NCBI GenBank assembly: GCA_964630665.1
Contig: CAZVVN010000006.1
Coordinates: forward strand, 1-64,000
Direction: 5' to 3'
Source: an uncultured Acidiferrobacteraceae bacterium
GTDB lineage: Bacteria; Pseudomonadota; Gammaproteobacteria; Arenicellales; UBA868
DNA: 64,000 nucleotides
The translations under genes and the position numbers were made by a program. Positions 8,324 through 39,565 of the stretch are shown in pieces. Every line of letters starts with the position of its first letter. Position 1 is the first letter of the stretch. Below the pieces are notes generated by a model. The model saw only the letters and a program-made list of their open reading frames with translations, ran no database searches and was not told the origin of the DNA.

Positions 8324-10216
8324 TCAGCCGATGGACTCTCCTGCTGAGCGTGTCACCCACTTCTGGAAAACCGGGGTCTTGGGCGGCTGCAGCGTGGTGT
8401 CAGCCTGGCAGCGGGCTTTGAGTTCCTCGACTGTTCCGCCGAAATCAAACAGTTCGACGCTGCCCCGCTGGGCCGCCATCTTGCGTCTCAGATCCTTTGT
8501 GGCGGATTCATCGACCAAAAGCTCACCCGTCAGGACCACACCGTATCGCCGGGCACCGTCTGTCGTTACCAGCCCTCGCTGAGTGTCGAGGGCAACCTTG
8601 GCAGGCTCCCGCTCCAGCGGGTCGCCCCAACCGCCGCCTCCCCAGGTGTTGAAGTACAGGGTATCTCCAGCTGCGACCCTGACTCTGTCGCACTTGGAGT
8701 GCATCCACTCCGTCTTGCCGTCGGACCGGACCATCAGCTTATTGCTGCGCTGACCCGGCAGTCCGCCATTGACGCCCCAGGGATGTGTCAGCCAGCGGTC
8801 ATCATGGATGGAGATCTCGCCAGGTTCAAGGAATTGATAGCCCATCGAGAGGCCGTTTCCACCGCGATGCAGGCCGGGCCCGCCGCTGTCAGCAATAGTC
8901 TCGTATTTAACGATCCGCAGCGGGAAATAGGCCTCGAGAAATTCGTTCGGTACATTAGTAAATGCCGGCCACAATGAGTGGCCATCTGGGCCGTCCCCGG
9001 CTGGCCGGCCGGGTATCCCGCCGAACCCGATCTGATAAAGCTGATACCACTCGCCGTTTTGATCATAACCCGAGTACATGAAGTGCGGGCTGTCCGAGAA
9101 ACCCGCAGCGCAGAGCGCATCTGGAGATCCCTGCCCCAGCAGACCGCTCATGATGTCAAAGATCCGTCCAAGCATATGGGTGCGTGAACTCAACGCGGCC
9201 GGGCGTATGGGCTTGAGAATCGAGCCACGCGGGATCCGCACTTCGACCAGATCATAGAAACCATCGTTGAAAAGGATCTGGGGATCAAACAGATTGATAA
9301 AGAATGCACCCAGAAACATCTTGAACATCTCTTCGTTCAACAGGAAGTTGACCGAACTGATCGACTGAGGATCGGTTCCTTCAAAATCAAAGAACACCTT
9401 TTCACCCTCGCGCCACATCGCGCAGCTGACCTTGTAAGGGCCCATGCCCATCCCGTCATCATCGATGTAATCGACAAAGTGCTGCTTCGTCTCCGGTACC
9501 ACCATATTCAGTATCGAGCTCATCGCCCGCTTGTTGCGATCCAGCATTTCGACCATGGCGGCGACGAACTCCTCGACACCAAACCGTTCGGCCATCTCCA
9601 GCACGCGCCGCTCAGCCAGTCTCAGAGCCGCGACAATGGCATTGAAATCCGAGCGGTTCCAATCCGGTAACCGGCAGTTCCGCAGGATCAACTCGAGGAT
9701 TTCCTTATTGAGCTCGCCCTTGCGGATGATCTTGACCGGCGGAACCTGAATACCTTCTTCAAATACCTGGGCAGCATCGGTCGGCAGACTCCCTGGAACC
9801 TTGCCACCGATATCCGTCATGTGACCGAACATAGCGGCCCAGGAAACCAGCCGCCCGTCGATATAGATCGGCATCATCATGAGCCAGTCATTCAAATGAC
9901 TGATCGCGCCATTGCAGGTATAGGGATCATTGGTCAGAAAAACGTCACCTTCTTCGATCGTCCCGTCGTAACCCTGCTGGAAGCCCCAGAAAAAAGAGCC
10001 GAACTGTCCGACGACCATCTTGCCTTCGTGGTTGGCAATCATCGGGAAGGCATCGTGCTGTTCGCGGATCCCGGGAGACATGGCTGTTCTGAACAGAACT
10101 GCGTCCATTTCCGTCCTGGCATTACGCAGGGCGTTCTCGATAATGTCGAGCGTGACCGGGTCGACCGTTACATCCTGGAATGGTGTGGTGTTGCTCTGAA
10201 TGACTTGTGCAGGCAT
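8324..10216 (-). CDS. hyuB: Hydantoinase B / oxoprolinase family protein (HyuB-like), cluster 1
   Basis: 630 aa. The N-terminal DPVTLDIIENALRNARTEMDAVLFRTAMSPGIREQHDAFPMI is characteristic of Hydantoinase_B, as are GGGGWGDPLEREP near the C-terminus and FDFGG at the end. It lies immediately downstream of hyuA with a 25-bp gap. Confidence 0.85.
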   Translation of the reverse strand: MPAQVIQSNTTPFQDVTVDPVTLDIIENALRNARTEMDAVLFRTAMSPGIREQHDAFPMIANHEGKMVVGQFGSFFWGFQQGYDGTIEEGDVFLTNDPYTCNGAISHLNDWLMMMPIYIDGRLVSWAAMFGHMTDIGGKVPGSLPTDAAQVFEEGIQVPPVKIIRKGELNKEILELILRNCRLPDWNRSDFNAIVAALRLAERRVLEMAERFGVEEFVAAMVEMLDRNKRAMSSILNMVVPETKQHFVDYIDDDGMGMGPYKVSCAMWREGEKVFFDFEGTDPQSISSVNFLLNEEMFKMFLGAFFINLFDPQILFNDGFYDLVEVRIPRGSILKPIRPAALSSRTHMLGRIFDIMSGLLGQGSPDALCAAGFSDSPHFMYSGYDQNGEWYQLYQIGFGGIPGRPAGDGPDGHSLWPAFTNVPNEFLEAYFPLRIVKYETIADSGGPGLHRGGNGLSMGYQFLEPGEISIHDDRWLTHPWGVNGGLPGQRSNKLMVRSDGKTEWMHSKCDRVRVAAGDTLYFNTWGGGGWGDPLEREPAKVALDTQRGLVTTDGARRYGVVLTGELLVDESATKDLRRKMAAQRGSVELFDFGGTVEELKARCQADTTLQPPKTPVFQKWVTRSAGESIG

Positions 10217-10241
10217 CGGATTGCTCTCGAGATGGTGGCCT

Positions 10242-12614
10242 TCAGGCTGGCCTGATCAGCAGATTTCCAACGGAATCCACTTCTCCAGCATGGCCGGGTA
10301 AGACCAGGGTCGTGGAGTCCATTTCGGTTACGATCGCGGGACCCGCAATCCTGTCTCCGGCCCTAAGCACGGCCCGGTCAAGAATGTCAGCGTCGTGCTC
10401 GCGACCTTCAAAGTAGATCTTGGAACGGGCATAGACCGCCCCGGAGGCATCGCCGTTTCCGCCGGCTAGCGCTTCGGCTTCTGCTGCGCTTTCCCTGCCC
10501 TGAACCAGTGCCCGAAGCGTGTAGAGTTCCCGCTCGGTCTCCAGGGCAAAAGTGAACAGTTGCTCGTGCATCGCATCAAAACGTTTCCCGAGCTCAGCAA
10601 GGCCACCGGATTCAAATTCGGCCGGCGTCATCTCGATAGTCAAACGCATACCCTGCCCGGCATAACGAAGATCGACCTGGTAGGCTGTCGACTGATCGCT
10701 TCGCGGAACGCCTTCAGCATCCAGAGTTGCGGCAGCCGAACCCGCCAGTTCAGTCAGGATTCCCAGTACCTGCGTGTCATCAGTTTCAGAGAATCGTCGG
10801 ACGAAGGTCCGAGAAGCCTCGTCGCGGACCCGGGTCGTGGCGTCACCGTAAGCGCACAACACCCCGGGTCCTGGCGGAATAATCACCGGCCAGGAATTCA
10901 TCAGACTGCCCAGGGCATTGGCATGCAGCGGGCCGGCCCCACCAAAGGCGACCAGTGCAAAATCCCTGGGATCAAAGCCCTGTTCCACTGACACCAGCCG
11001 CAGTGCGCCAAACATGTTCTCGTTGACGATGTTGACGATCCCTTCCGCTGCGTCCTGAACCGACAAACCCATGGCCTTGCCGACAGCAGCGACTGCCTGT
11101 TCCGCCTGATCGCGATCGAGCTCCATGTCGCCGCCGAGCTTGGCACTCGACGGCAGGTAGCCCAGGACCACGTTGGCATCGGTCACGGTGGGCTCGGTTC
11201 CACCCATGGCATAGGCAGCCGGCCCCGGCTCAGCACCGGCACTCTGTGGTCCGACGCGCAGGGCCCTCGTCAATTCCGGAACGTAAGCAATCGATCCTCC
11301 CCCCGCACCCACAGTCCGCACATCAATGGAAGACGAGCGCACGGTCACGTCCGCAACCCGGGTCTCGCGTCTTGTCTGAGCTACACCGTTTTGAATCAGG
11401 GCAACGTCTGTCGACGTGCCACCCATATCGAAGGTTAGAAGATCGCTGTAACCGGCCTGCCTGGCCATCCACACTGCACCCGACACGCCACCGGCCGGCC
11501 CGCTCATCAGCAGGTTGACCGGGGTTGCCTTGGCCGCCTCGGCCGACGCCAGGCCACCATCGGAACGCAGAATATGCAACTGCATCCCGCTCATTCGCCG
11601 ATTGAGCTCCGACTCAAGGTTCTCAATGTAGTTCGAGACCACCGGCCTGATGTACGAATTCACGACCGTTGTCTCGGTTCGTTCATACTCGTACATCTCC
11701 GGAACCACTTCCGATGAAATCGAGATCGGGATGCCAGGCAAAATACCCTCGGCCACCTGTCGAACCCGCTGCTCGTGTACACCGTTGGCGTAAGCGTTCA
11801 TCAGCGACACGGTCAGCGCCTCGATCCCGGCGCCGGACAACGCTTTCAGTGCCTCAGCCAGGGCATCCTCATCAAGGGGCCGGACGACCTCCCCTTTTGC
11901 GCCGATCCGCTCGTCTGCTTCAATGGTCAACTCCAGTGGCGCCAGGGGATCGCTCTTATTAAAGATCACCCAGCCACCCAGGCCACCCGGTACATAGGAC
12001 CGGGCGATCTGCAGAACCTGCTTGTAGCCTTTGGTCGTCACCAGCCCAACCCGGGCACCACTGGCTGTCAAAACGGTGTTGGTGGCCACTGTCGTGCCGT
12101 GCATGACATGACTGATATCAGCGAGAGAAACACCGGCCTGCTGACAGACCCGCTCGATGCCACTCAGTACCCCGATCGAAGAGTCTTTCGGGGTAGAGGG
12201 CACCTTGGCGGTAAAACTACGCCCGCTGGACTCCTCGATCAGCAGGATGTCGGTAAAAGTTCCACCAACATCAGCCCCCAGTCGGTAGCCGGCTTGACCG
12301 GCAACGCGCCTGGGCGCCGCAGTGGGCCCTTCCGTCGGAGCGGGTGTCGAAGCCGCCTGGGTACTGGCAGGCCTGCTTCTCGTTGCCGGCAGGTCAGGCG
12401 GTGGATCGTCTTCAGGCCTTTTCCGGGCCACCTCGGGTGAACGCTCCGCCGGTGGATCGTCAGAACGAGTCGTCCGCGGCGGGGCAGGAGGCTTGACCTG
12501 GGCAGGTTCTCCCGCCCGGGTCCGGTCACCCCGGGCCAGTGCAGCAAAGTCATCCTTTGCCTTTTTCAGTTCGGCATCGAACCAGCCCGTCGATTTACGC
12601 GAATCTTTCGTCAT
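10242..12614 (-). CDS. hyuA: Hydantoinase A / oxoprolinase family protein (HyuA-like) with a Pro/Ala-rich N-terminal extension of about 110 aa, cluster 1
   Basis: 790 aa. The core begins GADVGGTFTDILLIEE (Hydantoinase_A N-terminal signature). Before it sits a low-complexity segment (KPPAPPRTTRSDDPPAERSPEVARKRPEDDPPPDLPATRSRPASTQAASTPAPTEGPTAAP). No internal Met is available, so the extension is translated if ATG 12614 is used. Confidence 0.8.
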   Translation of the reverse strand: MTKDSRKSTGWFDAELKKAKDDFAALARGDRTRAGEPAQVKPPAPPRTTRSDDPPAERSPEVARKRPEDDPPPDLPATRSRPASTQAASTPAPTEGPTAAPRRVAGQAGYRLGADVGGTFTDILLIEESSGRSFTAKVPSTPKDSSIGVLSGIERVCQQAGVSLADISHVMHGTTVATNTVLTASGARVGLVTTKGYKQVLQIARSYVPGGLGGWVIFNKSDPLAPLELTIEADERIGAKGEVVRPLDEDALAEALKALSGAGIEALTVSLMNAYANGVHEQRVRQVAEGILPGIPISISSEVVPEMYEYERTETTVVNSYIRPVVSNYIENLESELNRRMSGMQLHILRSDGGLASAEAAKATPVNLLMSGPAGGVSGAVWMARQAGYSDLLTFDMGGTSTDVALIQNGVAQTRRETRVADVTVRSSSIDVRTVGAGGGSIAYVPELTRALRVGPQSAGAEPGPAAYAMGGTEPTVTDANVVLGYLPSSAKLGGDMELDRDQAEQAVAAVGKAMGLSVQDAAEGIVNIVNENMFGALRLVSVEQGFDPRDFALVAFGGAGPLHANALGSLMNSWPVIIPPGPGVLCAYGDATTRVRDEASRTFVRRFSETDDTQVLGILTELAGSAAATLDAEGVPRSDQSTAYQVDLRYAGQGMRLTIEMTPAEFESGGLAELGKRFDAMHEQLFTFALETERELYTLRALVQGRESAAEAEALAGGNGDASGAVYARSKIYFEGREHDADILDRAVLRAGDRIAGPAIVTEMDSTTLVLPGHAGEVDSVGNLLIRPA

Positions 12615-12674
12615 CCTTTAACGAATTTCCATCTGCTTGTTCATCATCCAATACCTAACGCAGACCGCGGCCCA

Positions 12675-13316: not shown

Positions 13317-13362
13317 TGTATCGCATCCGTCAGAGTGGTCACTATTGACGGCCCATCGGCTC

Positions 13363-14313
13363 TCACTGGGCGGCCTGGTGGGCGAGTACGTCGTCGGGGA
13401 ATATCCCGGCTTTCATCAACTGACCAGGCAGGGGATCGTCAAAATGACCTTCCACCCAGTTGGCGACCTCTATCAAGCCGGAGAGATCGACACCGGTTTC
13501 ATAGTCCATATTGCGCAATACATAACAAAGGTCCTCGGTGGAAATGTTACCGGTTGCACGAGGGGCAAACGGGCAACCGCCTATGCCCCCGACCGAAGCG
13601 TCCAGGATACGCACCCCTGATTCAACCGCCGCAACGGCGTTGGCGATCCCGGTGTTGCGGGTGTTGTGGAAGTGACAGCCTATGGCGACCGAACCATCGA
13701 GAATCTCCTGAACCGCTGTCAAACGCTCGCGCACCTGGCTCGGAACGGCACAGCCGATACTATCGGCAAGCAGGATCTCGTTCACGCCCATCTGATCCAG
13801 ACGACGGGCAATGTCGACAACAGCGCCAATGCTGACTTCGCCCTCAAATGGACAGCCGAACGAAGCTGCAATCACAGCTGAGAAGACTTTACCGGACTGG
13901 TGAACTCGCTGAGCGATGGATTCCAGACCGCCAAGTGTCTCGGCAATGCTGGCGCCCTGGTTCTTCTGATTGAAGGTCTCGCTGGCCACGACCACGTAGC
14001 GCACCTCGTCGACTTGAGCATCAAGAGCTCGCTCAACACCCTTCATATTCAAAGCCAGACCTGAGAACCGGACCCCGGTCGATCGATCGACCTCACCCAT
14101 GACCAATTCCGCGTCGGCCATCTGCGGGACCCGTTTGGGGTTGACGAAACTGACCGCTTCAATCCGTCGGATACCCGTCTGCGCCAGGCGATCGATCAAC
14201 TCGACACGCTCGGCAACACTCCAGATCCGTTTTTCACTCTGCAGTCCGTCACGGGCGGCAACGTCACAGATCTCGATAGACCTGGCGCGGTCAGATGATC
14301 CCGTCATTTTCAA
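13363..14313 (-). CDS. HMG-CoA lyase-like (DRE-TIM metallolyase) protein
   Basis: 316 aa. Motifs EICDVAARDGLQ (N-terminal DRE-TIM signature) and IGCHFHNTRNTGIANAVAAVESGVRILDASVGGIGGCPFAPRATGNISTEDL (HMGL-like metal-binding region). It overlaps the upstream CoA transferase by 23 nt. Confidence 0.75.
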   Translation of the reverse strand: MKMTGSSDRARSIEICDVAARDGLQSEKRIWSVAERVELIDRLAQTGIRRIEAVSFVNPKRVPQMADAELVMGEVDRSTGVRFSGLALNMKGVERALDAQVDEVRYVVVASETFNQKNQGASIAETLGGLESIAQRVHQSGKVFSAVIAASFGCPFEGEVSIGAVVDIARRLDQMGVNEILLADSIGCAVPSQVRERLTAVQEILDGSVAIGCHFHNTRNTGIANAVAAVESGVRILDASVGGIGGCPFAPRATGNISTEDLCYVLRNMDYETGVDLSGLIEVANWVEGHFDDPLPGQLMKAGIFPDDVLAHQAAQ

Positions 14314-15523
14314 GCTCCTTCAGATCGTCCTCAGATAGACCCAGCATGCCACAGTAAACCTCCTCATTGTGGACACCCACCTCGGATGGGCCAAGCCAGG
14401 CGATCTCACTGTGGGTCTCGCTCAGTTTCGGCACAAATCCCGGCACTGCAATTTCACCGAGTTCTTTATCCTGAAACCGGCAAATCATATCCCGCGCCTG
14501 GTAGTGCGGGTCGTTGACGATATCCTCGATCGAGTAGATGGGCCCTGACACCACGCCATGTTTATCCAGTCGCTCATCCAGTTCGGCAGCGCTCAACTCC
14601 CGGGTCCAGTCTGCAATCAGGCTATCCAGTTCGTCGCCGTTCTGCCCGCGGGCCTGATGCGTACTGTAACGTGGGTCATCGGCGAGTTCCGGCTGCTCCA
14701 TAGCATCGCACAGGCGTTTGAACATCGGGTTGAGATTCGCCGCGATCACTACCCACTTGCCATCGCTGGTCGGAAAGATATTGGACGGCGAGACGTTTGC
14801 CAGGCCGGTGCCGCTCGGCTCCCTCACAAATCCCACCTTGTCATACTCTGACAGTGCACTTTCCATCATCGCGAAGCACGATTCCGTGATCGATGCATCG
14901 ATCACCTGGCCCCTGCCCTTGCCAACCGTGTCTCGCCAGTAAAGTGCCATCAGCACCCCCTGGGCGGCAAACATTCCGGCCAGTGTGTCTCCCAGCGAGA
15001 TCCCCATTCGTGGCGGGGGCTGATCCGGGAACCCATTGATGTATCGGAGACCGCCCATCGCTTCACCGACACTGGCGAACCCTGGGCGATCTGCGTAGGG
15101 GCCGGTCTGGCCATATCCAGAAACACGGGCAATGACCAGGCCGGGGTTGATCTCGTGCAGAGCACTGGGCGCGAGACCCCATTTCTCCAGAGTACCCGGC
15201 TTGAAGTTCTCAACCAGTACATCTGCTGTCTCGATCAGGCGACGGACCAGATCCTGCCCTCGAGATTCGCGGAGATTCGCCGAGACCGACTTTTTGTTGC
15301 GCGCCAGGACCGGCCACCAGAGTCCCCGATCCTTGTACCGGTGATGTCCCCAGGCCCGCATCGCGTCTCCGTTGCCCGGTGTTTCGACCTTGATCACTTC
15401 GGCCCCGAAATCCGCCATCCGCGAACCCACAAAAGGACCGGCAACCAGCTGACCCATCTCGATCACCCGCACACCGGCCAGGGGGCCTTTGAGCCGTTCA
15501 TCGGTTTTCGTGCGCTCAGGCAT
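14291..15523 (-). CDS. CoA-transferase family III (CaiB/BaiF) protein
   Basis: 410 aa. GVRVIEMGQLVAGPFVGSRMADFGAEVIKVE is the canonical CaiB/BaiF N-terminal motif. Conserved Asp-containing regions are VLVENFKPG and LGDTLAGM. Confidence 0.8.
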   Translation of the reverse strand: MPERTKTDERLKGPLAGVRVIEMGQLVAGPFVGSRMADFGAEVIKVETPGNGDAMRAWGHHRYKDRGLWWPVLARNKKSVSANLRESRGQDLVRRLIETADVLVENFKPGTLEKWGLAPSALHEINPGLVIARVSGYGQTGPYADRPGFASVGEAMGGLRYINGFPDQPPPRMGISLGDTLAGMFAAQGVLMALYWRDTVGKGRGQVIDASITESCFAMMESALSEYDKVGFVREPSGTGLANVSPSNIFPTSDGKWVVIAANLNPMFKRLCDAMEQPELADDPRYSTHQARGQNGDELDSLIADWTRELSAAELDERLDKHGVVSGPIYSIEDIVNDPHYQARDMICRFQDKELGEIAVPGFVPKLSETHSEIAWLGPSEVGVHNEEVYCGMLGLSEDDLKELENDGII

Positions 15524-15630
15524 TACGCCACCTCGTCAGACTTGATTGTCAGCCCGGATTCTATACAAGAACACGGTTCCCGATCCCTGACCCGAGTTTT
15601 CACTTCGACTCCCGCCACGACGCTTCAACG

Positions 15631-16470
15631 CTAGTGGCGGCCAAGAAACGAAAAGAGGAGTTCACAGAACTCGGCCTTCTGTGCTTTGCCAGCCACGACG
15701 TGAGCTGTATTTTTCATGGTGACCCCTTCGGCGCCGGGTATCGCCTGTTCGATCGGCAATGTAGTCCGGGGACTTGTGATCATGTCCATGGCCGCATGGA
15801 TGACGAGCGTTGGGGCACTGATCAAAGCGAGGCGATCTCTGGTGTCATGCGTAAGACAGGCATCGACCAGACGTTCGTGGGTCACATAGTTGTCTCTCAG
15901 CTCTGGCCACTCACCGCCAGGACCCAGCAAACGGTGCCGGTTCTGATTGTAGAACTCGGGAAGGAACGAACAGATGCACACAAATTCCTGAAACGTGTAA
16001 AACCCCGAGTCCTTATGGACAGTCCTGAATAAATTCAGCTGATCTCGAAGATAGTCATCGCAGAAAGCCCAGGCCCCCATATTCACCATACTACGGACGA
16101 GGTCAGGACGATTAAGAGCAATTTCCTGGGCCACACCACAGCCCATTCCAACCAGGCCGATAAGGTGGACATCACGCCAGCCCAGAGAATCGAGCAAGCC
16201 GATCAGATCATCGGCATAAAGTCTCATCGATGCCGGTCTACCCGGTTCATCGCTGGATTCGGCAATGCCCCGGTAGTCGAAGACCAGCACCTTGTAGCGG
16301 TCGGTCAGACCCCGAGCCAGGCCCCGGCCATCGCGGTGGCAGTAGGTTCCCCAGCCTCCCATGCACACGGCGGGATCTCCTTCACCGTGGATCTCGTAAT
16401 ACATCTGGTGATTGTTGATCTCGGCAAGCGGCACGGTGAAATCCCCGGGTAGTGATGAATTGCCGGCCAT
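15631..16470 (-). CDS. Alpha/beta-fold hydrolase
   Basis: The ORF track extends to 16629, but that would leave only 5 bp to the divergent amidase start. The internal ATG at 16470 (MAGNSS...MYYEIHGEGDPAV) gives a typical a/b-hydrolase N-terminus. The nucleophile-elbow-like motif is GLVGMGCG. Confidence 0.6.
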   Translation of the reverse strand: MAGNSSLPGDFTVPLAEINNHQMYYEIHGEGDPAVCMGGWGTYCHRDGRGLARGLTDRYKVLVFDYRGIAESSDEPGRPASMRLYADDLIGLLDSLGWRDVHLIGLVGMGCGVAQEIALNRPDLVRSMVNMGAWAFCDDYLRDQLNLFRTVHKDSGFYTFQEFVCICSFLPEFYNQNRHRLLGPGGEWPELRDNYVTHERLVDACLTHDTRDRLALISAPTLVIHAAMDMITSPRTTLPIEQAIPGAEGVTMKNTAHVVAGKAQKAEFCELLFSFLGRH

Positions 16471-16634
16471 TCTATACGACCCGGGAGCGGTTCCAGCAGA
16501 ACGGCCTGGTACTTTGATCTGGTAGCCCAGCGGCACTTTCCCGGCAGATACCGCGACCTCAAGCCAGCTCTCACCCAATTGTGCTATCGTGCTGCGACTC
16601 AATGTGAGCCTCTTTCCCCACTCGAACATATCCC

Positions 16635-20244: not shown

Positions 20245-20811
20245 TCAACCAGGCCCGGATGATGACCTGGGCGGTGTCCAGCGATGGCGCCACCCCAGCC
20301 GGAATGACCGGACAACGCGGTGCAGCAGGTAGAAGAGCACAGCCAGCACTACCAGCACGAACACTGACAGCAACCGGCGGCCGAATGCAGCATCAATCAC
20401 AGAGCCGTCGTTCATCAGGTGTCCACTCAGCATCTCGACGGCCTGTATGGTCGCACCGGCACACAGGATGACGGCAGCTAGAACCGCGATCTGCAGCGTA
20501 TCGAAAATCAGATCCTGAGCGTTCGATTCAGTTACCCCCTGGAAAATACTTTTTCGAAATGACTGCCAGTGAGAGACGACGAAACTGATCACGGCGACCA
20601 GCGAGGCAAACCAGAACAATATGTTGGAGAAGTGAATTCTCGGGATATTGTCGATCAAGTACTGTACGAAAGGCTGGTAGAAAAGCAAGAAAATGATCAG
20701 AATCACGATCACAATCAGCCCAATCCACCGGCCTGGGCTGTGCCACCGACTGCTAGGCTCTTCCATCAGGTATAGGGGCCTCTTGCGGTGCCAGGAACGC
20801 AGAACGCTCAT
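20245..20811 (-). CDS. Small polytopic membrane protein (unknown family), paralog of 32788..33264
   Basis: 188 aa with about 4 predicted TM helices. Shared motifs with the 32788 ORF are FYQPF/FFQPF, GATIQAVE/GATLQAVQ and DAAFGRRL/DADFGRRI. Confidence 0.5.
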   Translation of the reverse strand: MSVLRSWHRKRPLYLMEEPSSRWHSPGRWIGLIVIVILIIFLLFYQPFVQYLIDNIPRIHFSNILFWFASLVAVISFVVSHWQSFRKSIFQGVTESNAQDLIFDTLQIAVLAAVILCAGATIQAVEMLSGHLMNDGSVIDAAFGRRLLSVFVLVVLAVLFYLLHRVVRSFRLGWRHRWTPPRSSSGPG

Positions 20812-29228: not shown

Positions 29229-29272
29229 GAAAACAGCGACTGCGGTGCTGCGTTAACCGCCTGCCAGTCGCT
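29229..29272 (-). terminator. Candidate intrinsic terminator between the convergent PotA-like and PotC-like genes
   Basis: An 8-bp inverted repeat AGCGACTG/CAGTCGCT (29235-29242 / 29265-29272) encloses an inner 5-bp stem GCGGT/ACCGC. On the minus strand the structure is followed by TTTTCC. It overlaps the potC-like stop. Confidence 0.35.
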
Positions 29273-30098
29273 AGTGCGTCCTGCGATACAGCAGGCTGTA
29301 GACCACCAGAAAAAGACCAATCATCACCAGTGAAAACAGTGTCGACGCCGTACCAAGTGCGAACAGTGTCGGTCGAATCCGCTGAGTCATCGATGCATTG
29401 ATATCCAGGGGCAGTGTGTTGAACTCTCCGGCCAGCAGGGTTGTGCGGGCAAATTCATCATAAGACAGCGTGAAGCCGAACAATCCGGCGGCAACGATTC
29501 CGGGCAGGATCAGAGGGAAAGTAACCTCCTTGAACACCGTCCACTCGTCAGCACCCATGTCTCGGGCTGCCTCCTCCAAGCTGGTGTCGAAACGATTGAA
29601 GACCGCCATCATGACCAGGAAACCGAACGGCAGAGTCCAGACCACATGGACGCCAAGGCCCGAAGACCACCATGCTGCTGGAATACCGATCTGCCTCATA
29701 AGAGTCGCCAGTCCCAAACTCAGCAGAATGCCTGGCACCATCAGGCCAGCCATGACCGTATAGAACAGCAGATTAGAACCTACAAATCGTTTCCGGAATG
29801 CCATTGCCAACATGGTTGAGAAAAGCGCCGTGATCACCATCACGATCAAAGCCAGGATCAAAGAGCGCAACAGTGCCCCCTGCATATCACCTACGGTCGA
29901 AGGCTCAACAAGTTTCTGCCACCAGTAAAAACTCGTACCACGCATCGGAAAACTGGTACCGCCACGGCGTCCCTGGAACGACAGAATAAACATAGCGATC
30001 ATCGGGCCGTAAATAAAAACCAGAAACAAACCGTAGTAGCTGCTGAACAACGTGGTGATCCATGCCCGTTTTTTTCTTTGCCTGGTCCAGCGCGCCAT
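29271..30098 (-). CDS. ABC transporter permease, PotC-like
   Basis: 275 aa, 6 TM, with the EAA loop motif EEAARDMGADEWTVFKEVTFPL. Confidence 0.8.
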   Translation of the reverse strand: MARWTRQRKKRAWITTLFSSYYGLFLVFIYGPMIAMFILSFQGRRGGTSFPMRGTSFYWWQKLVEPSTVGDMQGALLRSLILALIVMVITALFSTMLAMAFRKRFVGSNLLFYTVMAGLMVPGILLSLGLATLMRQIGIPAAWWSSGLGVHVVWTLPFGFLVMMAVFNRFDTSLEEAARDMGADEWTVFKEVTFPLILPGIVAAGLFGFTLSYDEFARTTLLAGEFNTLPLDINASMTQRIRPTLFALGTASTLFSLVMIGLFLVVYSLLYRRTH

Positions 30099-30100: not shown

Positions 30101-31090
30101 TTACAACTCCTTTCGGATGTTCACCAGGCGCAAGATAATCACCACGCCGATCATCATTGCCAGCATCAGCATGATTGCGTTGACAGCAGCGAACGGATAG
30201 TTTGCGATCGCGTAATAATTCAGAATGACAGTACCGACTGTACTGGCTTTGCCCCCGTAGACGACCACGGCCGTTGCAAATTCACCCATCAGCATGACGA
30301 ATATGAAGATCATGCCAATGGCCACCCCGGGCAGCGACAAAGGCAGGATGATCTCGCGAAAAATCTGGAATGCCGTGGCACCCATATCCCGGGCAGCTTC
30401 CAGAATATCGTTGTCGATCTTGGCCAGTGAGAAGAAGATCGGGCCCACACACAGGACCACATAGAGCTGCGCCAGCGCAGTGGTATAGCCAAATTCTGAG
30501 TAAAGCAGGAACCGGGCCGGTTTATCGATAATACCCAGTGATAGCAACAATGAATTGAGCAGTCCCCGCCGGCCGAGCATGGGCAGCCAGGCCACGGCCC
30601 GGATCAGGTAGCTGGTCCAGAACGGCACCATGCAAACCAGGAATAACGCCATCTGCCACTTGAAGCTGCTGACCCGCATGGCCAGAAAATAGGCGATCGG
30701 GTAACCGAGCAGGAGGCACAAGACCATCACTTCAAGGGTGTAGGCAAAAGTGCTGCCGAGAGTCCTGAGAAACACGCTGAGTCTCAGAAAATTCCTGTGG
30801 TCGGGGTCAAAAAATCCTTCCGCCAGAAAATACTCAGCGTAGTTACCGAAGTTAAGATCGGGCTCCAATCCATGACCTGTAGAAGTCCACAGGCTGAACA
30901 CAACAATACTGACCAGCGGAATCACCAGAAAGACAAGCAGCCAGACCGCACTGGGGGCGATCAGCCAGCCAACCGGGAACCCACCTTCTCGATGGCGGCG
31001 CTTCACACTGGCTTCGACCCCAGGGCGCTCGGGCGCCACAGGCTGGTCTCCGACCAGGCCCGGATGACTCGATGGCGTCAACGACTCCAT
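30101..31090 (-). CDS. ABC transporter permease, PotB-like
   Basis: 329 aa, multi-TM, with the EAA motif LEAARDMGATAFQIFREIILPL. It sits 3 bp upstream of the PotC-like gene. Confidence 0.8.
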   Translation of the reverse strand: MESLTPSSHPGLVGDQPVAPERPGVEASVKRRHREGGFPVGWLIAPSAVWLLVFLVIPLVSIVVFSLWTSTGHGLEPDLNFGNYAEYFLAEGFFDPDHRNFLRLSVFLRTLGSTFAYTLEVMVLCLLLGYPIAYFLAMRVSSFKWQMALFLVCMVPFWTSYLIRAVAWLPMLGRRGLLNSLLLSLGIIDKPARFLLYSEFGYTTALAQLYVVLCVGPIFFSLAKIDNDILEAARDMGATAFQIFREIILPLSLPGVAIGMIFIFVMLMGEFATAVVVYGGKASTVGTVILNYYAIANYPFAAVNAIMLMLAMMIGVVIILRLVNIRKEL

Positions 31091-31306: not shown

Positions 31307-32596
31307 TCAGGCCGTCAGGAACTCGGTCCAGCGCTTGACCAGGTAGTCGTTCTCTTTCATCAGCGAGTTCCACACACCGATATTAGAGAAACGATCCCAG
31401 TACGACCCACCATCCCGGACCTCACCTTTAGGTACCAGCGGATTACCGAACGGGTCCATCAGTTCCTTGGCCGCAGGCTTGCCCAGGTACCAGTAGTCCC
31501 ACTCTTCCGGCTCAAGATGCTTCTTGACGTTCTCGGTCTGGGACATGTAGTACCCCTGTCGGGCCACAAACGCGCCACCCCAACCGCTCAACCACCAGTT
31601 GATATACTCGTAGGCCTGATCGAGTTTCTTACCGGACACCTTGTTCGAAATCGACAGTCCACCGTGCCAGCCACGATAACCTTCTTTGAGGTCAGCATAG
31701 ATACACGGCACACCTTCCGACCTGATTGCAGTCACTGCAGGCGACCACATGCTCTCGACCGCGACTTCACCTGAGACCATGAGGTTGACGGACTGACCGA
31801 ATGTCTCCCAGAACGCGCGGAAATGACCTTCCTGCTTTTTCTCGATCAGGAAGTCGATCAAAACATCGATTTCCTCACGAGTCATATCCCCCTTGTCCTT
31901 GAAATCGATCAGCCCAATAGCCTCTGCTGCCATGGCCGCGTCCATAACACCGATCTGCGGCACGTTCAAAAGTGCAGTTCTGCCCCGGTACTTCTCATCA
32001 AACAGCTCACCCCAACTCTCCAGCTTGCCACCGGTCTCTTCCGGGTTGTATCCCAGCGTGTCAGCGTTGTGCCAAGTCGGTACGGCTGAGACCCAGCGTG
32101 TCGGGCCATCCACCAGATCACCGCTTTCGTTCAGCCACAACTTCCGGAAAGGTGCGTCGCCGTCACCTTCCTTGGAGTCAGGTGTGAGCTTGCCTTTCTT
32201 GCTCAGGTCAGAGATAGAGTCCCACTCCTTGACCCGAGTAGTGTCTGTCGGGTGCCAGACTTTGGCTGGAATGAAGACGTCAAAGTCGTTGTAGTACCCT
32301 TCGGCGATGTCGTACTGGTCATTCTGGTTGAGCATCTTGCCGAACATGGCGCCATAACCCAGTGCCTGACCACGGATCTCGAATCCCAGGTCCTTAGAGG
32401 CCTGAGCCTGGATCTCGTTGATGATACTGACACCCAGACCAATGGTGCGCAGCGGTTCATTTCCCGTCGAGATGTAAGGGAAACTGGCGGCCACCGTGCC
32501 GGCCGCAACAGCTTTTGCCGTGGTTCCCATGAACTCACGGCGGGTAACATCAGTGCGCCCTTTGGCGGCGCTCCGTTTCTTCGTGGTGTCTGTCAT
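31307..32596 (-). CDS. ABC transporter periplasmic substrate-binding protein (solute-binding family 1, PotD/PotF-like) with Tat signal
   Basis: 429 aa. The N-terminal RREFMGTTAKAVAAGTVAASF is a twin-arginine signal. AAGGAGG lies 11 nt upstream of the ATG. Confidence 0.8.
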   Translation of the reverse strand: MTDTTKKRSAAKGRTDVTRREFMGTTAKAVAAGTVAASFPYISTGNEPLRTIGLGVSIINEIQAQASKDLGFEIRGQALGYGAMFGKMLNQNDQYDIAEGYYNDFDVFIPAKVWHPTDTTRVKEWDSISDLSKKGKLTPDSKEGDGDAPFRKLWLNESGDLVDGPTRWVSAVPTWHNADTLGYNPEETGGKLESWGELFDEKYRGRTALLNVPQIGVMDAAMAAEAIGLIDFKDKGDMTREEIDVLIDFLIEKKQEGHFRAFWETFGQSVNLMVSGEVAVESMWSPAVTAIRSEGVPCIYADLKEGYRGWHGGLSISNKVSGKKLDQAYEYINWWLSGWGGAFVARQGYYMSQTENVKKHLEPEEWDYWYLGKPAAKELMDPFGNPLVPKGEVRDGGSYWDRFSNIGVWNSLMKENDYLVKRWTEFLTA

Positions 32597-32613
32597 TTTT
32601 CAGTGTCCTCCTT

Positions 32614-32653: not shown

Positions 32654-32787
32654 CTCCTGGTCATCCACGATACCAAATATCTTCAACGGGACAAATACCT
32701 CCTTGACACCTGTGCAGTCAGGCCAGCAGTGAAAAATTTCCACATTTTCGATTCAGGCTCCAGGTGTTACCTTTCAAGAATCAAGAC

Positions 32788-33264
32788 TTATGCCCTGACC
32801 GGTCGAATCAGCTTCAGCAGCCAGAAAATAACACAGAATATACCCGTGATGATCACCAGGGCGATCGTCGCTGCAATACGCCTGCCGAAATCCGCGTCAA
32901 ACCCATGGCCGCTCTGCAACAGATAAGTACAGACGTTCTGGACCGCCTGCAGGGTCGCACCACCGCTCAACAGAATCGCCGTGAAAGTCGATCCTCTCAA
33001 AGAGGTCAGAACCATCGATTCGATGCTGCGCTGCTGGACGATATGTACCTTATAGGCGTGCCAGTGAAATGTGCAGAATCCGATGATGCCGATTATCAGA
33101 GCAGCCCAGAAAATCGCATTGCTGTAGGTCACCCCATTGAGGACCAGAGTAAAGAGGTCCTCAAATGGCTGGAAGAAATAAAGGAACACCAGGACGAGAA
33201 TGAGCAGGAGAAATCCTACCAGCGTCCAGAACCACTGCCATCCTGTCATATTCACTGCACCCAA
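32788..33264 (-). CDS. Small polytopic membrane protein (unknown family), paralog of 20245..20811
   Basis: 158 aa with about 4 TM helices. It shares motifs with the 20245 ORF (see that entry). It is last in the string isochorismatase-hyuA-hyuB-membrane-membrane. Confidence 0.5.
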   Translation of the reverse strand: MGAVNMTGWQWFWTLVGFLLLILVLVFLYFFQPFEDLFTLVLNGVTYSNAIFWAALIIGIIGFCTFHWHAYKVHIVQQRSIESMVLTSLRGSTFTAILLSGGATLQAVQNVCTYLLQSGHGFDADFGRRIAATIALVIITGIFCVIFWLLKLIRPVRA

Positions 33265-33432
33265 AAATCTGTGGCCAATCGGAAATCCTATCCCGATCGT
33301 GCCTTACTAAACGCTAGTTATTACCCAGGGTAAGTGCGCTCGAGCCCATGTAATCTGAACCAAATCGTGCTCGAATTCAAGCAAACACCGCCCGGCGGGC
33401 TGTCAGACCCATGCCCACTCCAGCAAGTGCCC

Positions 33433-34476: not shown

Positions 34477-34548
34477 ACGTTTGCCTCCGACTCAGGAACT
34501 CAAGATTTCACGACAGGCAGGTAGTCTGAAACCCTTCGATCCCCGCAG

Positions 34549-36711
34549 TCAGTTATCTCGCAGAACTTTCTGCGCACATTTGAACAGGCTCTGGTCGGCG
34601 GCAGCCTGAAGGCGTGCGCCGATCGATGATGCGCTGGGGTTCTCATCGGTACCGGTTTCGCTGGCATAGGTGCCGTTGGCCCGCAACTCACCACGCACTT
34701 CGGCAAAACCTCGGCGAGAGGAGTAATAAACGACGTCAAAACTCCAGGCCTCACCAAACGCCTCGCGCAGGGATTCGATCGTTGAATCACGGCTCTGGCT
34801 TACACCAGAAACCGCTGTTTCAACGGCGGTCGACCTTCGGCCGGGTGCAGTCCGCTGGGCTGTTTCAGAGGTCGCAAGCCGTGATTCTCTGAGCGCAACC
34901 TCTTCGGGGCTGCGATCCCGGCTTTCACTCAGGGTCCCAGCCGGCTGACTGCGCATCTGGGCGCGGAGCGATTCGGTGGCAGTGTCATTGACCCTTTCTG
35001 CAGCCAGATCAACAACCACACCATAGGCCGCCTTAGCGTGTTCCACCGTACAGAAATCGTCCAGTACATCTTCTAGAACCTGCGACGCTGGACGTTCCAG
35101 TGGGTCGCCGTATCCGCCGCCACACGGTGCGTAGAACGCGTGAACCTCACCGGCTTTGATCTTCAGGCCGGAGAACTTGGCCGGCATCTGTTGAATGTCA
35201 TCCGGATCATCGACGTTGTAGATCTCGACCTTGCCGGTTGTTCCCGGCCAACCGCCGAATATGCCCCAAGGCACGTCATGGTGCCGTTCGTTTTCGTGGG
35301 TGATGAAACCGTCGGTGAGCACGCGCTGGGACTTGACCACACCGATACCACCGCGAAAGCGCCCGGCTCCGGGCAGCACATCGTCGCGAAGCTCATAACG
35401 GTCACAGATCATCGGCAAGTGCATCGCGAGGTCTTCCAGCGGATTGTTACGCGTATTGGCCATCAGGTTATCTATGCTGTCCGGGCCATCGGAGAGCGGC
35501 CGACCTCCATAGGCGCCCTCGTTGACTTCCAGAAAGACCCAGTAATCACCCGATGGCCTGACTCCCGAATAAGAGACAAAAGACAGCGACGCGGAACTGC
35601 CAGCGATGATCTGATCGGGTAGAACCGGCGCCAGAGCCTTATAAATGAGGTCGATCACCCGGTTGACCTGGGTAAACCTTGCTTCTGCGGCAGCAGGAAA
35701 CTCAGGGTTGTAGATCGAACCTTTGGGCGCGATCACCTTGATCGGTCGGAACGAACCTTCGTTGGACGGCACCTGGATCTCCGAGGTTTCGGCATCCAGC
35801 AGCAAAGAGCGGATCGCGCAGAAACATGCGACTTTAGTCGAACCTTCAAATGGCACGTTAAATCCGGTCTCGACCTGGTCTGATGAACCGGTCAGGTCGA
35901 TCTCAATCGAATCGCCTTGAACCCGCACGCAGACCTTGATGGGCAAGCGTACGTCGCGGTTTTTGCCGTCATCATCCAGATAACCTTCCGCACGGTATTC
36001 ACCATCCGGAATCTTGTCGATCTTCTGCCTCAGTATCCGCTCGGTGTAGTCCATCAGCTGGCCGGTGGCTGCCAGGATCGTGTCCTTCCCATAACGCTCC
36101 ATGAGTTCGACAAAGCGCCGCACACCCAGCTTGGCAGAGGCGATCTGAGCCTCTATATCACTTTGCAACTGTTTGGCAGCGCGGCTGTTTCGTCCCAGAA
36201 ACTCCCACAGGGCGTCATTGCGGACACCCCTTTCATAGAGCTTGGTACCGGCAAACAGCATGCCCTCGGCATAGACATCCGGTATATCGATGATCAACCC
36301 CGGGGTGGCCGCTCCGATATCTAGATGATGCGCGGTGTTAGCTGCAAAACCGACCAGCTGGTCCTGATAAAAACAGGGAATCACAATGGCAAGGTCAGGC
36401 GAGTGACTGGCTCCGAAGTAGGGGTGGTTGTGAAGCACCACGTCGCCCTCGTTCCAGACACCACCTTGCAGTGACTCCTGGATGCCGTACAGGTAACCAG
36501 GCAGAGAACCAATGTGCAACGGTGTCGACTCCGATTCACACAAAGTGTTGAAATCAGTATCAAACAGGCCGGCACCGAGATCCTGCGATTCGCGAATGAT
36601 CGACGAGAAGGACATCCGGTAAAGGATATGGCCCATCTCCTCGGCGATGGTATCCAGCGCGCCGCTGATGACCTGTAAAGTGATCGGATCTAGTTCGTCA
36701 GCTGCCATCAC
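34549..36711 (-). CDS. hyuB: Hydantoinase B family protein (HyuB-like) with a roughly 130-aa C-terminal extension containing a Rad52-like minidomain, cluster 3
   Basis: 720 aa. The Hydantoinase_B core is marked by DPITLQVISGALDTIAEEMGHILYRMSFSSIIRESQDLGAGLF... and GGGYGDPLERP. The C-terminal tail contains LREAFGEAWSFDVVYYSSRRGFAEVRGELRANG...LQAAADQSLFKCAQKVL. Confidence 0.85.
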   Translation of the reverse strand: MMAADELDPITLQVISGALDTIAEEMGHILYRMSFSSIIRESQDLGAGLFDTDFNTLCESESTPLHIGSLPGYLYGIQESLQGGVWNEGDVVLHNHPYFGASHSPDLAIVIPCFYQDQLVGFAANTAHHLDIGAATPGLIIDIPDVYAEGMLFAGTKLYERGVRNDALWEFLGRNSRAAKQLQSDIEAQIASAKLGVRRFVELMERYGKDTILAATGQLMDYTERILRQKIDKIPDGEYRAEGYLDDDGKNRDVRLPIKVCVRVQGDSIEIDLTGSSDQVETGFNVPFEGSTKVACFCAIRSLLLDAETSEIQVPSNEGSFRPIKVIAPKGSIYNPEFPAAAEARFTQVNRVIDLIYKALAPVLPDQIIAGSSASLSFVSYSGVRPSGDYWVFLEVNEGAYGGRPLSDGPDSIDNLMANTRNNPLEDLAMHLPMICDRYELRDDVLPGAGRFRGGIGVVKSQRVLTDGFITHENERHHDVPWGIFGGWPGTTGKVEIYNVDDPDDIQQMPAKFSGLKIKAGEVHAFYAPCGGGYGDPLERPASQVLEDVLDDFCTVEHAKAAYGVVVDLAAERVNDTATESLRAQMRSQPAGTLSESRDRSPEEVALRESRLATSETAQRTAPGRRSTAVETAVSGVSQSRDSTIESLREAFGEAWSFDVVYYSSRRGFAEVRGELRANGTYASETGTDENPSASSIGARLQAAADQSLFKCAQKVLRDN

Positions 36712-36732
36712 TTATATGCCCATGACGGGTAT

Positions 36733-38808: not shown

Positions 38809-38869
38809 GATCGCGGTCCATTGGCCGGTCGCATCTGACGTTCAGTTTCCCCGATCTCATGGTCTGGTG

Positions 38870-39565
38870 TCATGCGACCTCATGTTGCGAGCCCGATTCG
38901 ACCGTGGCAAGGTAGTCCAGCACCCGGCTCAGTGGCTCGACATCGCCGAACTTGGCGTCTATATCGAACAGATTCCATTCAGTCACTGCCGGTACGCGGT
39001 CTCCTACGGCCTCTCGGACCACGATCGGCCGAAACCCCTCGGCAATCGCGTCTTCTGTGGTGTGTCTCACACAACCGGCCATCGTGACGCCGGTAATGAT
39101 TACTGTATCCACGTCCTGTGCCCGCAGGAAACCTGCCAGATAGGTTCCGTGAAATCCACTGGCACGTTTCTTCTCTATCACCATCTCGTTGTCGAGCGGC
39201 GCAATTCGGTCATCGATAGCACAAGTTTCACTGCCGGCCTGCAGTAACTCCGCCGGAATCTTCTTGTGCCACAGACCCATGTCCGTGGGATCGCCTTGGG
39301 TGACATTGTAGGCGGTGGTCGTGAACACGATCGGAATACCAGCGGCGCGGGACGCTTTGAGCAAAGCCTGGGTAGAAGGGATGATGACATCCATGTTGTC
39401 GCAGAAAAAGACATTGCCGGGGCGGGTCCAGGCATTGGCAAGGTCGATATTCAAAAGTGCCGGACGCTTGCCGAATCCGATCCGCCGCTGGAATCCCCGC
39501 TCCTTGTACAGCGCCGAATCAATGGCGAAGATCTTGTCTAATGCATCCTGAATCTCGTCTGACAT
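38870..39565 (-). CDS. Isochorismatase-family cysteine hydrolase, closest in motif content to N-carbamoylsarcosine amidase (CSHase), cluster 3
   Basis: 231 aa. Motifs are ERGFQRRIGFGKRPALLNIDLANAWTRPG, IDDRIAPLDNEMVIEKKRASGF and ITGVTMAGCVRHTTEDAIAEGFRPIVVRE. They match my recollection of the Arthrobacter CSHase family, including the GCVRH catalytic-Cys context. This is unverified. Confidence 0.75.
   Translation of the reverse strand: MSDEIQDALDKIFAIDSALYKERGFQRRIGFGKRPALLNIDLANAWTRPGNVFFCDNMDVIIPSTQALLKASRAAGIPIVFTTTAYNVTQGDPTDMGLWHKKIPAELLQAGSETCAIDDRIAPLDNEMVIEKKRASGFHGTYLAGFLRAQDVDTVIITGVTMAGCVRHTTEDAIAEGFRPIVVREAVGDRVPAVTEWNLFDIDAKFGDVEPLSRVLDYLATVESGSQHEVA

Follow-up and report, generated by a model that had tools for sequence, protein, structure and literature searches.

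In the described creatine and creatinine clusters of Corynebacterium glutamicum ATCC 14067, Pseudomonas putida, Arthrobacter and Roseobacter denitrificans, the gene for N-carbamoylsarcosine amidohydrolase (CSHase) adjoins hyuA and hyuB (PMC8864220). The solved enzymes of this pathway are an N-methylhydantoinase (PDB 7HK5/9H03), which is one chain of 1288 amino acids (aa), and the CSHase of Arthrobacter (PDB 1NBA). A second described system is the caprolactamase CapAB of Pseudomonas jessenii (6YRA), a two-subunit enzyme for which the ATP motifs of HyuA and the metal tetrad of HyuB (CapB D41/H99/D102/H124) have been defined (PMC8453981); its product is an amino acid, and no downstream amidase is needed. 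Here we analyzed a stretch of 64,000 nt (positions 1 to 64,000 of contig CAZVVN010000006.1, assembly GCA_964630665.1), referred to as a whole as the window, from an uncultured Acidiferrobacteraceae bacterium (GTDB lineage Bacteria; Pseudomonadota; Gammaproteobacteria; Arenicellales; UBA868). The window carries three modules, numbered 1 to 3, each composed of HyuA, HyuB, and an isochorismatase-fold cysteine hydrolase (Iso). Together, the three modules belong to a single supercluster of about 32 kb that is conserved in related marine gammaproteobacterial metagenome-assembled genomes (MAGs). With a probability of roughly 60%, we read them as one catabolic supercluster for cyclic amides and ureides of a marine gammaproteobacterium and not as three free-standing cassettes. 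The supercluster also encodes an SPFH protein and three copies of a Rad52-like domain, one of them free and two fused to HyuB2 and HyuB3.

All nine open reading frames (ORFs) of the modules lie where a preliminary description of this DNA had placed them, with modules 1 and 3 each on one strand and Iso2 opposite to HyuA2 and HyuB2 (Table 1), and the peptides quoted there were found, VVGCTTSGCVRAS in Iso1 and ITGVTMAGCVRHT in Iso3. Pfam searches revealed an end-to-end Hydantoinase_B match in HyuB1-3 (E 1e-145 to 1e-152), the Hydant_A_N, Hydantoinase_A, and Hydant_A_C domains in HyuA1-3, above the Pfam cut-offs and with E down to 1e-91, and the Isochorismatase domain in Iso1-3 (E 1e-25 to 1e-32). 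Pairwise identities are 37-46% for HyuA (46% for 1/2, 37% for 1/3, and 37.5% for 2/3), 29-51% for HyuB (51%, 29%, and 30% for the same pairs), and 28-44% for Iso (36-37%, 28-30%, and 42-44%), in agreement with the proposal that the paralogs diverged long ago and did not arise by recent duplication. Each HyuA contains the ATP motifs DxGGTxTD, DxGGT, and GxxPGP, which read DVGGTFTD, DMGGTSTD, and GAEPGP in HyuA1 and are likewise found in HyuA2 and HyuA3. Each HyuB contains the Asp-His-Asp-His metal tetrad, mapped through the alignment of HyuB1 with 6YRA_B and the alignment of HyuB1-3: D55/H107/D110/H132 in HyuB1, which aligns with the CapB tetrad, D211/H263/D266/H288 in HyuB2, and D44/H103/D106/H128 in HyuB3. 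CapAB thus shares its two-subunit build, ATP motifs, and metal site with all three modules. The Asp-Lys-Cys triad of 1NBA (D51/K144/C177) is kept on alignment in Iso1, Iso2, and Iso3. Judging from sequence, all six Hyu subunits and the three amidases look catalytically competent.

Comparison of the window with related loci (labeled L001-L030) revealed that the layout of the supercluster recurs in L002-L012, L018-L020, L023, and L025-L030. Over 20.5 kb, the window is 95% identical in nucleotide sequence to contig PBDS01000026 (MAG of Proteobacteria bacterium isolate SP340), and the gene order is kept in the MAGs Acidiferrobacteraceae bacterium NP122 and Gammaproteobacteria bacterium REDSEA-S15_B12 and in marine metagenome contigs. 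In these relatives, the genes for the ABC ATPase, the SPFH protein, HyuB2, and HyuA2 point in one direction, followed by those for a membrane protein, Iso2, the small Rad52-like protein, and a redoxin, which point in the other direction; next come an amidase gene in the first direction and the genes for a hydrolase, a CoA-transferase, an HMG-CoA-lyase-like (HMGL) enzyme, Iso1, HyuA1, and HyuB1 in the second. The arrangement of modules 1 and 2 is not a matter of chance, because it is syntenic, intervening genes included, in relatives whose small linker protein, the homolog of the free 152-aa Rad52-like protein, is just 45-50% identical. In L029 and L030, as in the window, the HyuB3 gene is followed by two membrane-protein genes, the binding-protein gene, and the permease genes, and then by the ABC ATPase and SPFH genes in the opposite direction. 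Thirteen further metagenome loci came from a scan with an alignment narrower than A5, the profile of the Rad52-like family, which is too diverse for pattern design, and the core of the supercluster is found in other metagenomic lineages too. In L023 and L028, an Iso2-type gene, the small protein gene, and HyuA3-type and HyuB3-type genes follow one another without a separate Iso3, and L028 additionally has a divergent HyuA2-HyuB2-SPFH set; in both loci, one Iso2-type amidase adjoins HyuA2B2-type as well as HyuA3B3-type enzymes. Between the membrane-protein and Iso2-type genes of L013, L018-L020, and L023 lie genes for a CobW/COG0523-type GTPase, an ORF of about 105 aa, and a polysaccharide-deacetylase-family (Polysacc_deac_1/DUF2334) protein, all of which are absent from the window lineage.

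One ABC importer is common to modules 2 and 3: its ATPase gene stands in the module 2 operon, and its permease and binding-protein genes stand in the module 3 operon. This split layout matches in L006, L008, L011, L012, L023, L029, and L030. The preliminary description had pictured a battery of three ring-opening enzymes with carbamoyl hydrolases for different substrates. The enzyme types and the module 3 pathway hold up, whereas the idea of independent cassettes gives way to one supercluster with a common importer, and the carbamoyl substrate is doubtful for module 1. Its view of the neighborhood was accurate in the genes that it listed, namely three amidase-signature amidases, an M20 protein that clears the cut-off of TIGR01879 ('hydantoinase/carbamoylase family amidase'), and two ABC importers, but it had overlooked the Rad52-like domains of HyuB2 and HyuB3, the free copy, and the SPFH gene.

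The SPFH gene begins 30 nt past HyuB2, and an SPFH gene lies directly 3' of every HyuB2-type gene for which downstream sequence is available (L002-L006, L008, L009, L011, L012, L018, L020, and L028). The encoded protein has a hydrophobic N-terminus and then a long Glu/Lys/Gln/Ala-rich region, which looks like a coiled coil by eye. SPFH proteins usually have an NfeD protein or a protease as partner, whereas the operon of the 861-aa protein in the window also encodes a hydantoinase-type enzyme and an ABC ATPase. In the searched literature, no paper was found that treats SPFH together with a hydantoinase. The AT skew of +0.34 at 26-28 kb is probably explained by the codons of this gene. A second SPFH-family protein, a 536-aa flotillin with Band_7 and Flot domains, is encoded at 59179-60789 (-). 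The three membrane proteins without a Pfam match are candidates for transport or anchoring components. The first gene of the Iso2 operon has homologs in the same position in L002-L010, L018-L020, L023, L025, L026, and L028, and the homologs of the two genes after HyuB3 are kept after HyuB3-type genes in L023, L029, and L030. The 189-aa ORF at 32764-33333 (+) is spurious, as it is antisense to the conserved gene of the 158-aa membrane protein.

Table 1. Positions of the three modules and the associated features in the 64,000-nt window.
Feature	Position	Strand	Match
HyuB1, module 1 beta subunit, 630 aa	8324..10216	-	Pfam Hydantoinase_B residues 19-533, E 9e-147
HyuA1, module 1 ATP-binding alpha subunit, 790 aa	10242..12614	-	three Hyu-A domains from residue 111
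Iso1, module 1 Cys-hydrolase, 213 aa	12675..13316	-	Pfam Isochorismatase, E 1e-25
HMG-CoA-lyase-like enzyme, module 1 operon	13363-14313	-	Pfam HMGL-like; NCBIfam NF004283, 319 bits (cut-off 246)
Family-III CoA-transferase, module 1 operon	14291-15523	-	Pfam CoA_transf_3; 23-nt overlap with HMGL-like gene
Alpha/beta hydrolase, module 1 operon	15631-16629	-	Pfam Abhydrolase_1
Amidase-signature amidase between modules 1 and 2, 465 aa	16635..18032	+	Pfam Amidase, E 7e-103
Tandem AhpC/Redoxin-fold protein, last gene of Iso2 operon, 312 aa	18067..19005	-	Pfam Redoxin 158-309; AhpC-TSA in two stretches
Free Rad52-like protein (N-terminal helix, disordered linker, alpha-beta3-alpha domain), 152 aa	19011..19469	-	
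Iso2, module 2 CSHase-family Cys-hydrolase, 247 aa	19481..20224	-	Pfam Isochorismatase, E 1e-32
Membrane protein with several hydrophobic stretches, first gene of Iso2 operon, 188 aa	20245..20811	-	no Pfam match
HyuA2, module 2 alpha subunit, 689 aa	21081..23150	+	three Pfam Hyu-A domains
HyuB2, module 2 beta subunit, 771 aa	23164..25479	+	Hydantoinase_B only from residue 175
HyuB2 N-terminal Rad52-like extension, ~135 aa	23164-23568	+	full copy of the 152-aa protein (helix, linker, domain)
SPFH/Band-7 protein, 861 aa	25510..28095	+	Pfam Band_7 residues 44-188, E 2e-16
ABC importer ATPase, module 2 operon	28120-29202	+	Pfam ABC_tran/TOBE_2
ABC importer permeases, module 3 operon	29271-30098 and 30101-31090	-	Pfam BPD_transp_1 twice
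ABC importer binding protein, module 3 operon	31307-32596	-	Pfam SBP_bac_8
Membrane protein after HyuB3, paralog of 20245-20811, 158 aa	32788-33264	-	no Pfam match
Multi-pass membrane protein directly after HyuB3, 347 aa	33433-34476	-	no Pfam match
HyuB3, N-methylhydantoinase beta part (by homology), 720 aa	34549..36711	-	PDB 7HK5 residues 701-1262
HyuB3 C-terminal Rad52-like alpha-beta3-alpha domain	34552-34815	-	
HyuA3, N-methylhydantoinase alpha part (by homology), 691 aa	36733..38808	-	PDB 7HK5 residues 1-687
Iso3, N-carbamoylsarcosine amidase ortholog candidate, 231 aa	38870..39565	-	PDB 1NBA, E 1e-79
Luciferase-like (LLM) oxidoreductase, module 3 flank	39784-40764	-	Pfam Bac_luciferase
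Amidase, module 3 flank	40853-42166	+	Pfam Amidase; clears NCBIfam NF006169
HpxZ/AtzH-like protein, module 3 flank	42163-42570	+	Pfam AtzH-like; 137.3 bits (HpxZ 'oxalurate catabolism' equivalog cut-off 135)

Analysis of module 3 indicated, by homology, a two-subunit N-methylhydantoinase (EC 3.5.2.14) with an N-carbamoylsarcosine amidase (EC 3.5.1.59) of the creatinine pathway, and the proposed route of N-methylhydantoinase followed by CSHase closely fits this module. In the PDB search, HyuA3 matches the N-terminal part of 7HK5 (residues 1-687) with E 1e-185 and 622 bits, and HyuB3 matches the following part (residues 701-1262) with E 2e-179 and 601 bits. Iso3 is 56% identical to the Arthrobacter CSHase 1NBA, with D51/K144/C177/R202 all kept. 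The pair by itself is already known and ordinary: as in the creatinine clusters, the amidase gene lies directly upstream of hyuA-hyuB (PMC8864220). The module differs from the solved N-methylhydantoinase in consisting of two subunits in place of one chain, and in HyuB3, whose C-terminus is about 150 residues longer and closes with a Rad52-like domain without a counterpart in the solved enzyme. It differs from the creatinine clusters in the two more paralogous modules, the SPFH protein, and the unfamiliar membrane proteins that surround it, and the scanned ORFs of its neighborhood include no gene for creatinine deaminase, creatininase, or sarcosine oxidase.

The three copies of the Rad52-like domain in the window have about 70 aa in common (pairwise blastp E 1e-9, 2e-8, and 6e-4), the value of 1e-9 being that of the HyuB3 tail against the HyuB2 N-domain in a two-sequence blastp. 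The HyuB2 extension matches the profile hidden Markov model (HMM) of the family with E 1e-15 and shares its invariant helix FD.L...N..Q...L. AlphaFold2 models of the free protein and the HyuB3 tail consist of a helix, three strands, and a helix, with the predicted local distance difference test (pLDDT) above 90 in the domain. When the free protein was compared with the PDB by Foldseek, human RAD52 rings came on top (E 7e-5 to 7e-4). A search of 1.84 billion representatives with the family profile gave 245 clusters, mostly standalone proteins of 140-200 aa. Nine of the 36 weaker profile hits are Pfam-certified Rad52_Rad22 (PF04098) proteins, and the relative P0162 scores 19.5 bits against Rad52_Rad22, just under the cut-off of 20.3. 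Comparison of the family profile A5 by hhalign with P0256, one of the nine Pfam-certified proteins, gave a probability of 97.9% (E 5e-13), and P0256 itself matches Rad52_Rad22 (E 6e-16) as well as phage annealing-protein families in PHROGs. From the Rad52_Rad22 profile matches, the hhalign result, and the agreeing fold of the free protein, we assign the domain, as a prediction, to a divergent offshoot of the Rad52/22 family. It has the beta-beta-beta-alpha core in common with Rad52/Rad22 (PF04098; human RAD52 rings 8RIL, 8RJ3, and 8BJM). Unlike those proteins, the window copies stand in metabolic operons or are fused to a hydrolase, possess their own conserved N-terminal helix, and have no recombination partner genes nearby. 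In the family, strand 1 bears a near-invariant basic patch (R-D-R-R-R), and two cysteines are near-invariant as well. No paper combining Rad52 with a hydantoinase was found in the searched literature.

The genomic placement of the domain is regular. The free gene begins 11 nt after the Iso2 stop codon, and wherever upstream sequence is available (more than 20 loci, including several near-identical copies), an Iso2-type gene lies immediately 5' of the free copy. In every HyuB2-type gene the extension is fused, or is present as a separate gene between hyuA and hyuB (L011 and L012), and the HyuB3-type tail is found also in L023. Every credible fusion scanned among the longer profile hits is onto the N-terminus of Hydantoinase_B. 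The standalone HyuB3-tail proteins P0261-P0263 begin inside the C-terminal segment of HyuB, so that their split is perhaps an artefact, and only the split in L011 and L012 is reliable. The redoxin protein follows the 152-aa protein in L002-L010, L016, L026, and L027. In the window, it starts 5 nt past the Rad52-like gene and has a degenerate N-terminal repeat; a redox link is possible.

A tentative explanation of these arrangements, which we hold to be possible without favoring it strongly, is that a branch of the Rad52/22 family has been co-opted, with no role in DNA metabolism, to tie HyuA2B2, HyuA3B3, and the CSHase-type amidase together under an SPFH scaffold for membrane-proximal ureide channeling. 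The domains would self-associate in the manner of Rad52 N-domains, holding the two enzymes and the amidase together; the assembly might lie at the membrane, close to the co-operonic SPFH protein and to the importer, and intermediates would pass directly from enzyme to enzyme.

The alternative that survives best holds that the three modules are independent, substrate-specific cassettes and that the Rad52-like protein is a small structural third subunit of HyuAB, without cross-linking of the modules, the amidase, or the membrane. We regard it as unlikely. That the small gene lies between hyuA and hyuB in L011 and L012, and is fused to HyuB2 elsewhere, is typical of a subunit, but the free copy is tied to the Iso2-type gene even where the available sequence shows no adjacent hyuAB (L013, L016, L017, L021, L022, and L024, several of which are short contigs), and the window lineage retains fused as well as free copies. 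A precedent is the small gamma subunit of acetone carboxylase, which is placed on the HyuB-like subunit of that enzyme; against this, neither the solved N-methylhydantoinase nor the caprolactamase contains such a subunit, as judged from chain lengths and match ranges, and the third copy is attached to a different enzyme, HyuB3, at the opposite terminus. Module 1 still looks complete without such a domain, in line with separate cassettes, whereas the importer common to modules 2 and 3 speaks against them.

It is improbable that the domain keeps a nucleic-acid-binding function, either as an RNA or single-stranded DNA regulator of cluster expression or as a relic of a mobile-element annealing protein. 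The homology to Rad52/22 annealing proteins, the conserved basic patch, and the similarity of the HyuB3 tail model to RNA- or ribosome-binding folds, namely those of the double-stranded RNA-binding domain (dsRBD) and HPF, are compatible with such a function. However, Pfam scans revealed no phage or mobile-element genes nearby, the annealing families of PHROGs match P0256 and no window copy, the position in metabolic operons is conserved over lineages that are 35-50% identical, and in-frame fusion to a metabolic enzyme has occurred repeatedly.

The HyuA and HyuB proteins of modules 1 and 2 were compared with solved structures and family models. Among the proteins so compared (HyuA2, HyuA3, and HyuB1-3), 7HK5 ranks first, caprolactamase second, and the carboxylases lower. 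Neither this ranking nor the intact triad of Iso1-3 contradicts the enzyme types given in the preliminary description. HyuA2 scores 435 bits against 7HK5, 344 against 6YRA_A, 307 against acetophenone carboxylase, and 257 against acetone carboxylase; HyuB1 scores 234 bits against 7HK5 and 211 against 6YRA_B, and HyuB2 scores 228 and 197 bits against 7HK5 and caprolactamase, respectively. Acetone carboxylase reaches only 64-68 bits with HyuB1 and HyuB2. For all six Hyu proteins the best NCBIfam models are those of caprolactamase, NF050156/NF050157, with 495-577 bits for HyuA and 215-250 bits for HyuB against a cut-off of 1000; CapAB moreover has no Rad52-like domain. The acetone and acetophenone carboxylase models give 99-310 bits against cut-offs of 1250-1500. 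All three HyuB proteins have Asp as first metal ligand, compared with Glu in acetone carboxylase's alpha subunit (PMC8453981), and Pfam revealed no gamma-subunit family of the Acetone_carb_G type among the neighboring genes. The scores of HyuA2, HyuB2, and HyuB1 against 7HK5 thus indicate a common superfamily and a clade different from N-methylhydantoinase, and modules 1 and 2 are, by predicted relationship, a sister clade of ATP-dependent ring-opening enzymes apart from the module 3 clade. That modules 1 and 2 are instead ATP-dependent carboxylases of the acetone/acetophenone type or plain 5-oxoprolinases beside unrelated isochorismatase-fold genes is very improbable: the family does include oxoprolinases as well as carboxylases, all of these share the ATP motifs and the metal tetrad (PMC8453981), and the NCBIfam equivalogs are not reached, but the low acetone carboxylase scores of HyuB1 and HyuB2, the hydrolase-like Asp ligand, the missing gamma subunit, and the linkage of Iso, HyuA, and HyuB in all relatives, which argues for a product that requires an amidase when 5-oxoproline opening requires none, all stand against it.

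Iso2 shares 50% of its residues with PDB 26st, deposited as 'N-carbamoylsarcosine amidohydrolase' (E 5e-63); a literature search found nothing on the source or biochemistry of 26st. The best PDB matches of Iso1 are 4L07 (E 6e-34), 26st, 3OT4, and 1NBA, with identities of 36% to 26st, about 35% to 4L07, and 29% to 1NBA. The equivalent of Arg202 in 1NBA, which we take to be the residue holding the substrate carboxylate, is Arg in Iso2 and Iso3 and Gln in Iso1. When CSHases are recognized by an Arg202 equivalent together with at least 50% identity to a named CSHase, Iso3 and Iso2 fall within the group and Iso1 falls outside it. The triad of Iso1 is shared with 4L07/4L08 and 3OT4/3UAO, which are titled just 'isochorismatase family', whereas its Gln takes the place of an Arg in those structures and in CSHase. 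These structures presumably represent Ami and NicF, the maleamate amidohydrolases of nicotine/nicotinate degradation; further genes of the nicotinate pathway are lacking. Iso2 probably also cleaves an N-carbamoyl acid. Since Iso1 has Gln at the Arg202 position, is no nearer to CSHase than to 4L07/3OT4, and lies in an operon with the CoA-transferase and HMG-CoA-lyase-like genes, a carbamoyl-amino-acid substrate is doubtful for module 1. Iso1 probably cleaves a different amide, the carbon skeleton of which would then go to the CoA-transferase and the HMG-CoA-lyase-like enzyme, and we infer for module 1 as a whole an amide whose skeleton ends as a CoA-activated hydroxy-acid. The HMGL-like and CoA-transferase pair is retained alongside the system in L018 and L019. 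The amidase between modules 1 and 2 scores below all NCBIfam equivalogs, and its position is kept in L002-L010 and L026.

HyuA1 carries an N-terminal extension of 110 aa (12285-12614), composed of a peptide of about 30 aa, MTKDSRKSTGWFDAELKKAKDDFAALARG, and a Pro/Ala-rich linker. In the relatives, the peptide is conserved and the linker is variable. A search for this peptide on other proteins gave just one partial HyuA1 homolog. When an HMM of the family helix only was run against 676 window ORFs, it found the 152-aa protein (E 7e-9) and HyuB2 (E 5e-6), and not HyuA1; a weak hit in L005 (E 0.004) probably reflects linker composition.

The preferred reading of one catabolic supercluster suggests the following course of events. 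The ABC importer would bring in the substrate or substrates. By analogy with caprolactamase and oxoprolinase (PMC8453981), HyuA would use ATP to phosphorylate the ring amide as a lactim, and the intermediate would travel along a tunnel into the partner HyuB, whose metal site would hydrolyze it and so open the ring. The CSHase-family cysteine hydrolase would then remove the carbamoyl or amide group via a cysteine thioester, releasing NH3, and CO2 as well in the case of a carbamoyl group. For module 3, homology predicts that N-methylhydantoin is opened to N-carbamoylsarcosine, from which sarcosine, CO2, and NH3 arise.

Several observations weigh against this reading or parts of it. No gene for creatinine deaminase, creatininase, or sarcosine oxidase/dehydrogenase is present among the window ORFs scanned, so the source of N-methylhydantoin and the fate of sarcosine are not locally encoded. 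None of the Hyu or Iso proteins reaches an NCBIfam equivalog cut-off. Cyclic imides giving half-amides, oxidized pyrimidines, parabanate/oxalurate, and substituted pyroglutamates were considered as substrates of modules 1 and 2, and the gene context gave no support for any of them; these substrates are guesses. As for the Rad52-like domain, the window copies have no direct match in Pfam (E <= 0.001 for the free protein) or in PHROGs, a profile search of PDB sequences did not retrieve RAD52 (its sole match was a chance one to eL24), and the fold search with the HyuB3 tail gave generic dsRBD/HPF-like folds, none of them significant. An apparent isochorismatase-Rad52-like fusion, P0226, has Arg-rich junk between its parts and looks like a frameshift or mis-call. 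The idea that the N-terminal peptide of HyuA1 is the docking helix of the 152-aa protein and HyuB2 was rejected, since the helix HMM misses HyuA1; as the peptide shows no detectable relation to that helix, module 1 is not visibly tied into the assembly. The co-assembly role of the domain is itself drawn from gene fusion, gene order, and the analogy with Rad52 rings.

The flanks of the supercluster contain further genes of amide metabolism and transport. Beside module 3, the HpxZ/AtzH-like gene overlaps the amidase gene by 4 nt, and the layout of LLM oxidoreductase, amidase, and HpxZ-like protein is identical in L001. Proteins of the nitroreductase and PNPOx families come after the amidase/HpxZ-like pair in the same stretch (40853-44333, +). 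This gene set suggests an oxidized-ureide branch of the oxalurate or dicarboxyurea type. Elsewhere in the window, in a 780-aa ORF at 52811-55153 (-), a UrtE/LivF-type ABC ATPase (aa 7-233) is followed in frame by a complete amidase (aa 277-779), which scores 821 bits with NCBIfam PRK07235 against a cut-off of 545. This ORF closes a Liv/Urt-type ABC operon (55150-59083) and is either a genuine fusion of transporter and amidase or the product of a stop codon that was lost. Unrelated neighbors are an Lhr-type large helicase of 1485 aa (1990-6447, +), a class-III adenylate/guanylate cyclase (48472-49659, -), and a spore-photoproduct-lyase-like (SPL/DUF1848) protein (62808-63872, -).

Creatine, creatinine, and related ureides are under discussion as sources of nitrogen for marine and sponge-associated communities, with hyuA/hyuB counts as markers (PMC6742649). 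Just one of the three co-located hyuAB pairs in the window is of the N-methylhydantoinase type, and counting hyuAB therefore overstates the creatinine potential. The locus represents a creatinine-type HyuAB-CSHase system that has grown to three paralogous sets in a single conserved cluster. The association of hydantoinase-type enzymes with a Rad52-derived accessory domain, and with an SPFH protein encoded in the same operon, is absent from the searched literature. If the proposed role of the domain is true, a portable tag of this kind would be of practical use in the biocatalysis of lactams and hydantoins by ATP-dependent enzymes. Such a role would also mean that the Rad52 fold serves a new purpose, and would be a form of enzyme organization not described for the hydantoinase family, and, as an assembly module, the domain would provide a clear case of a DNA-repair fold reused to organize a metabolic pathway.

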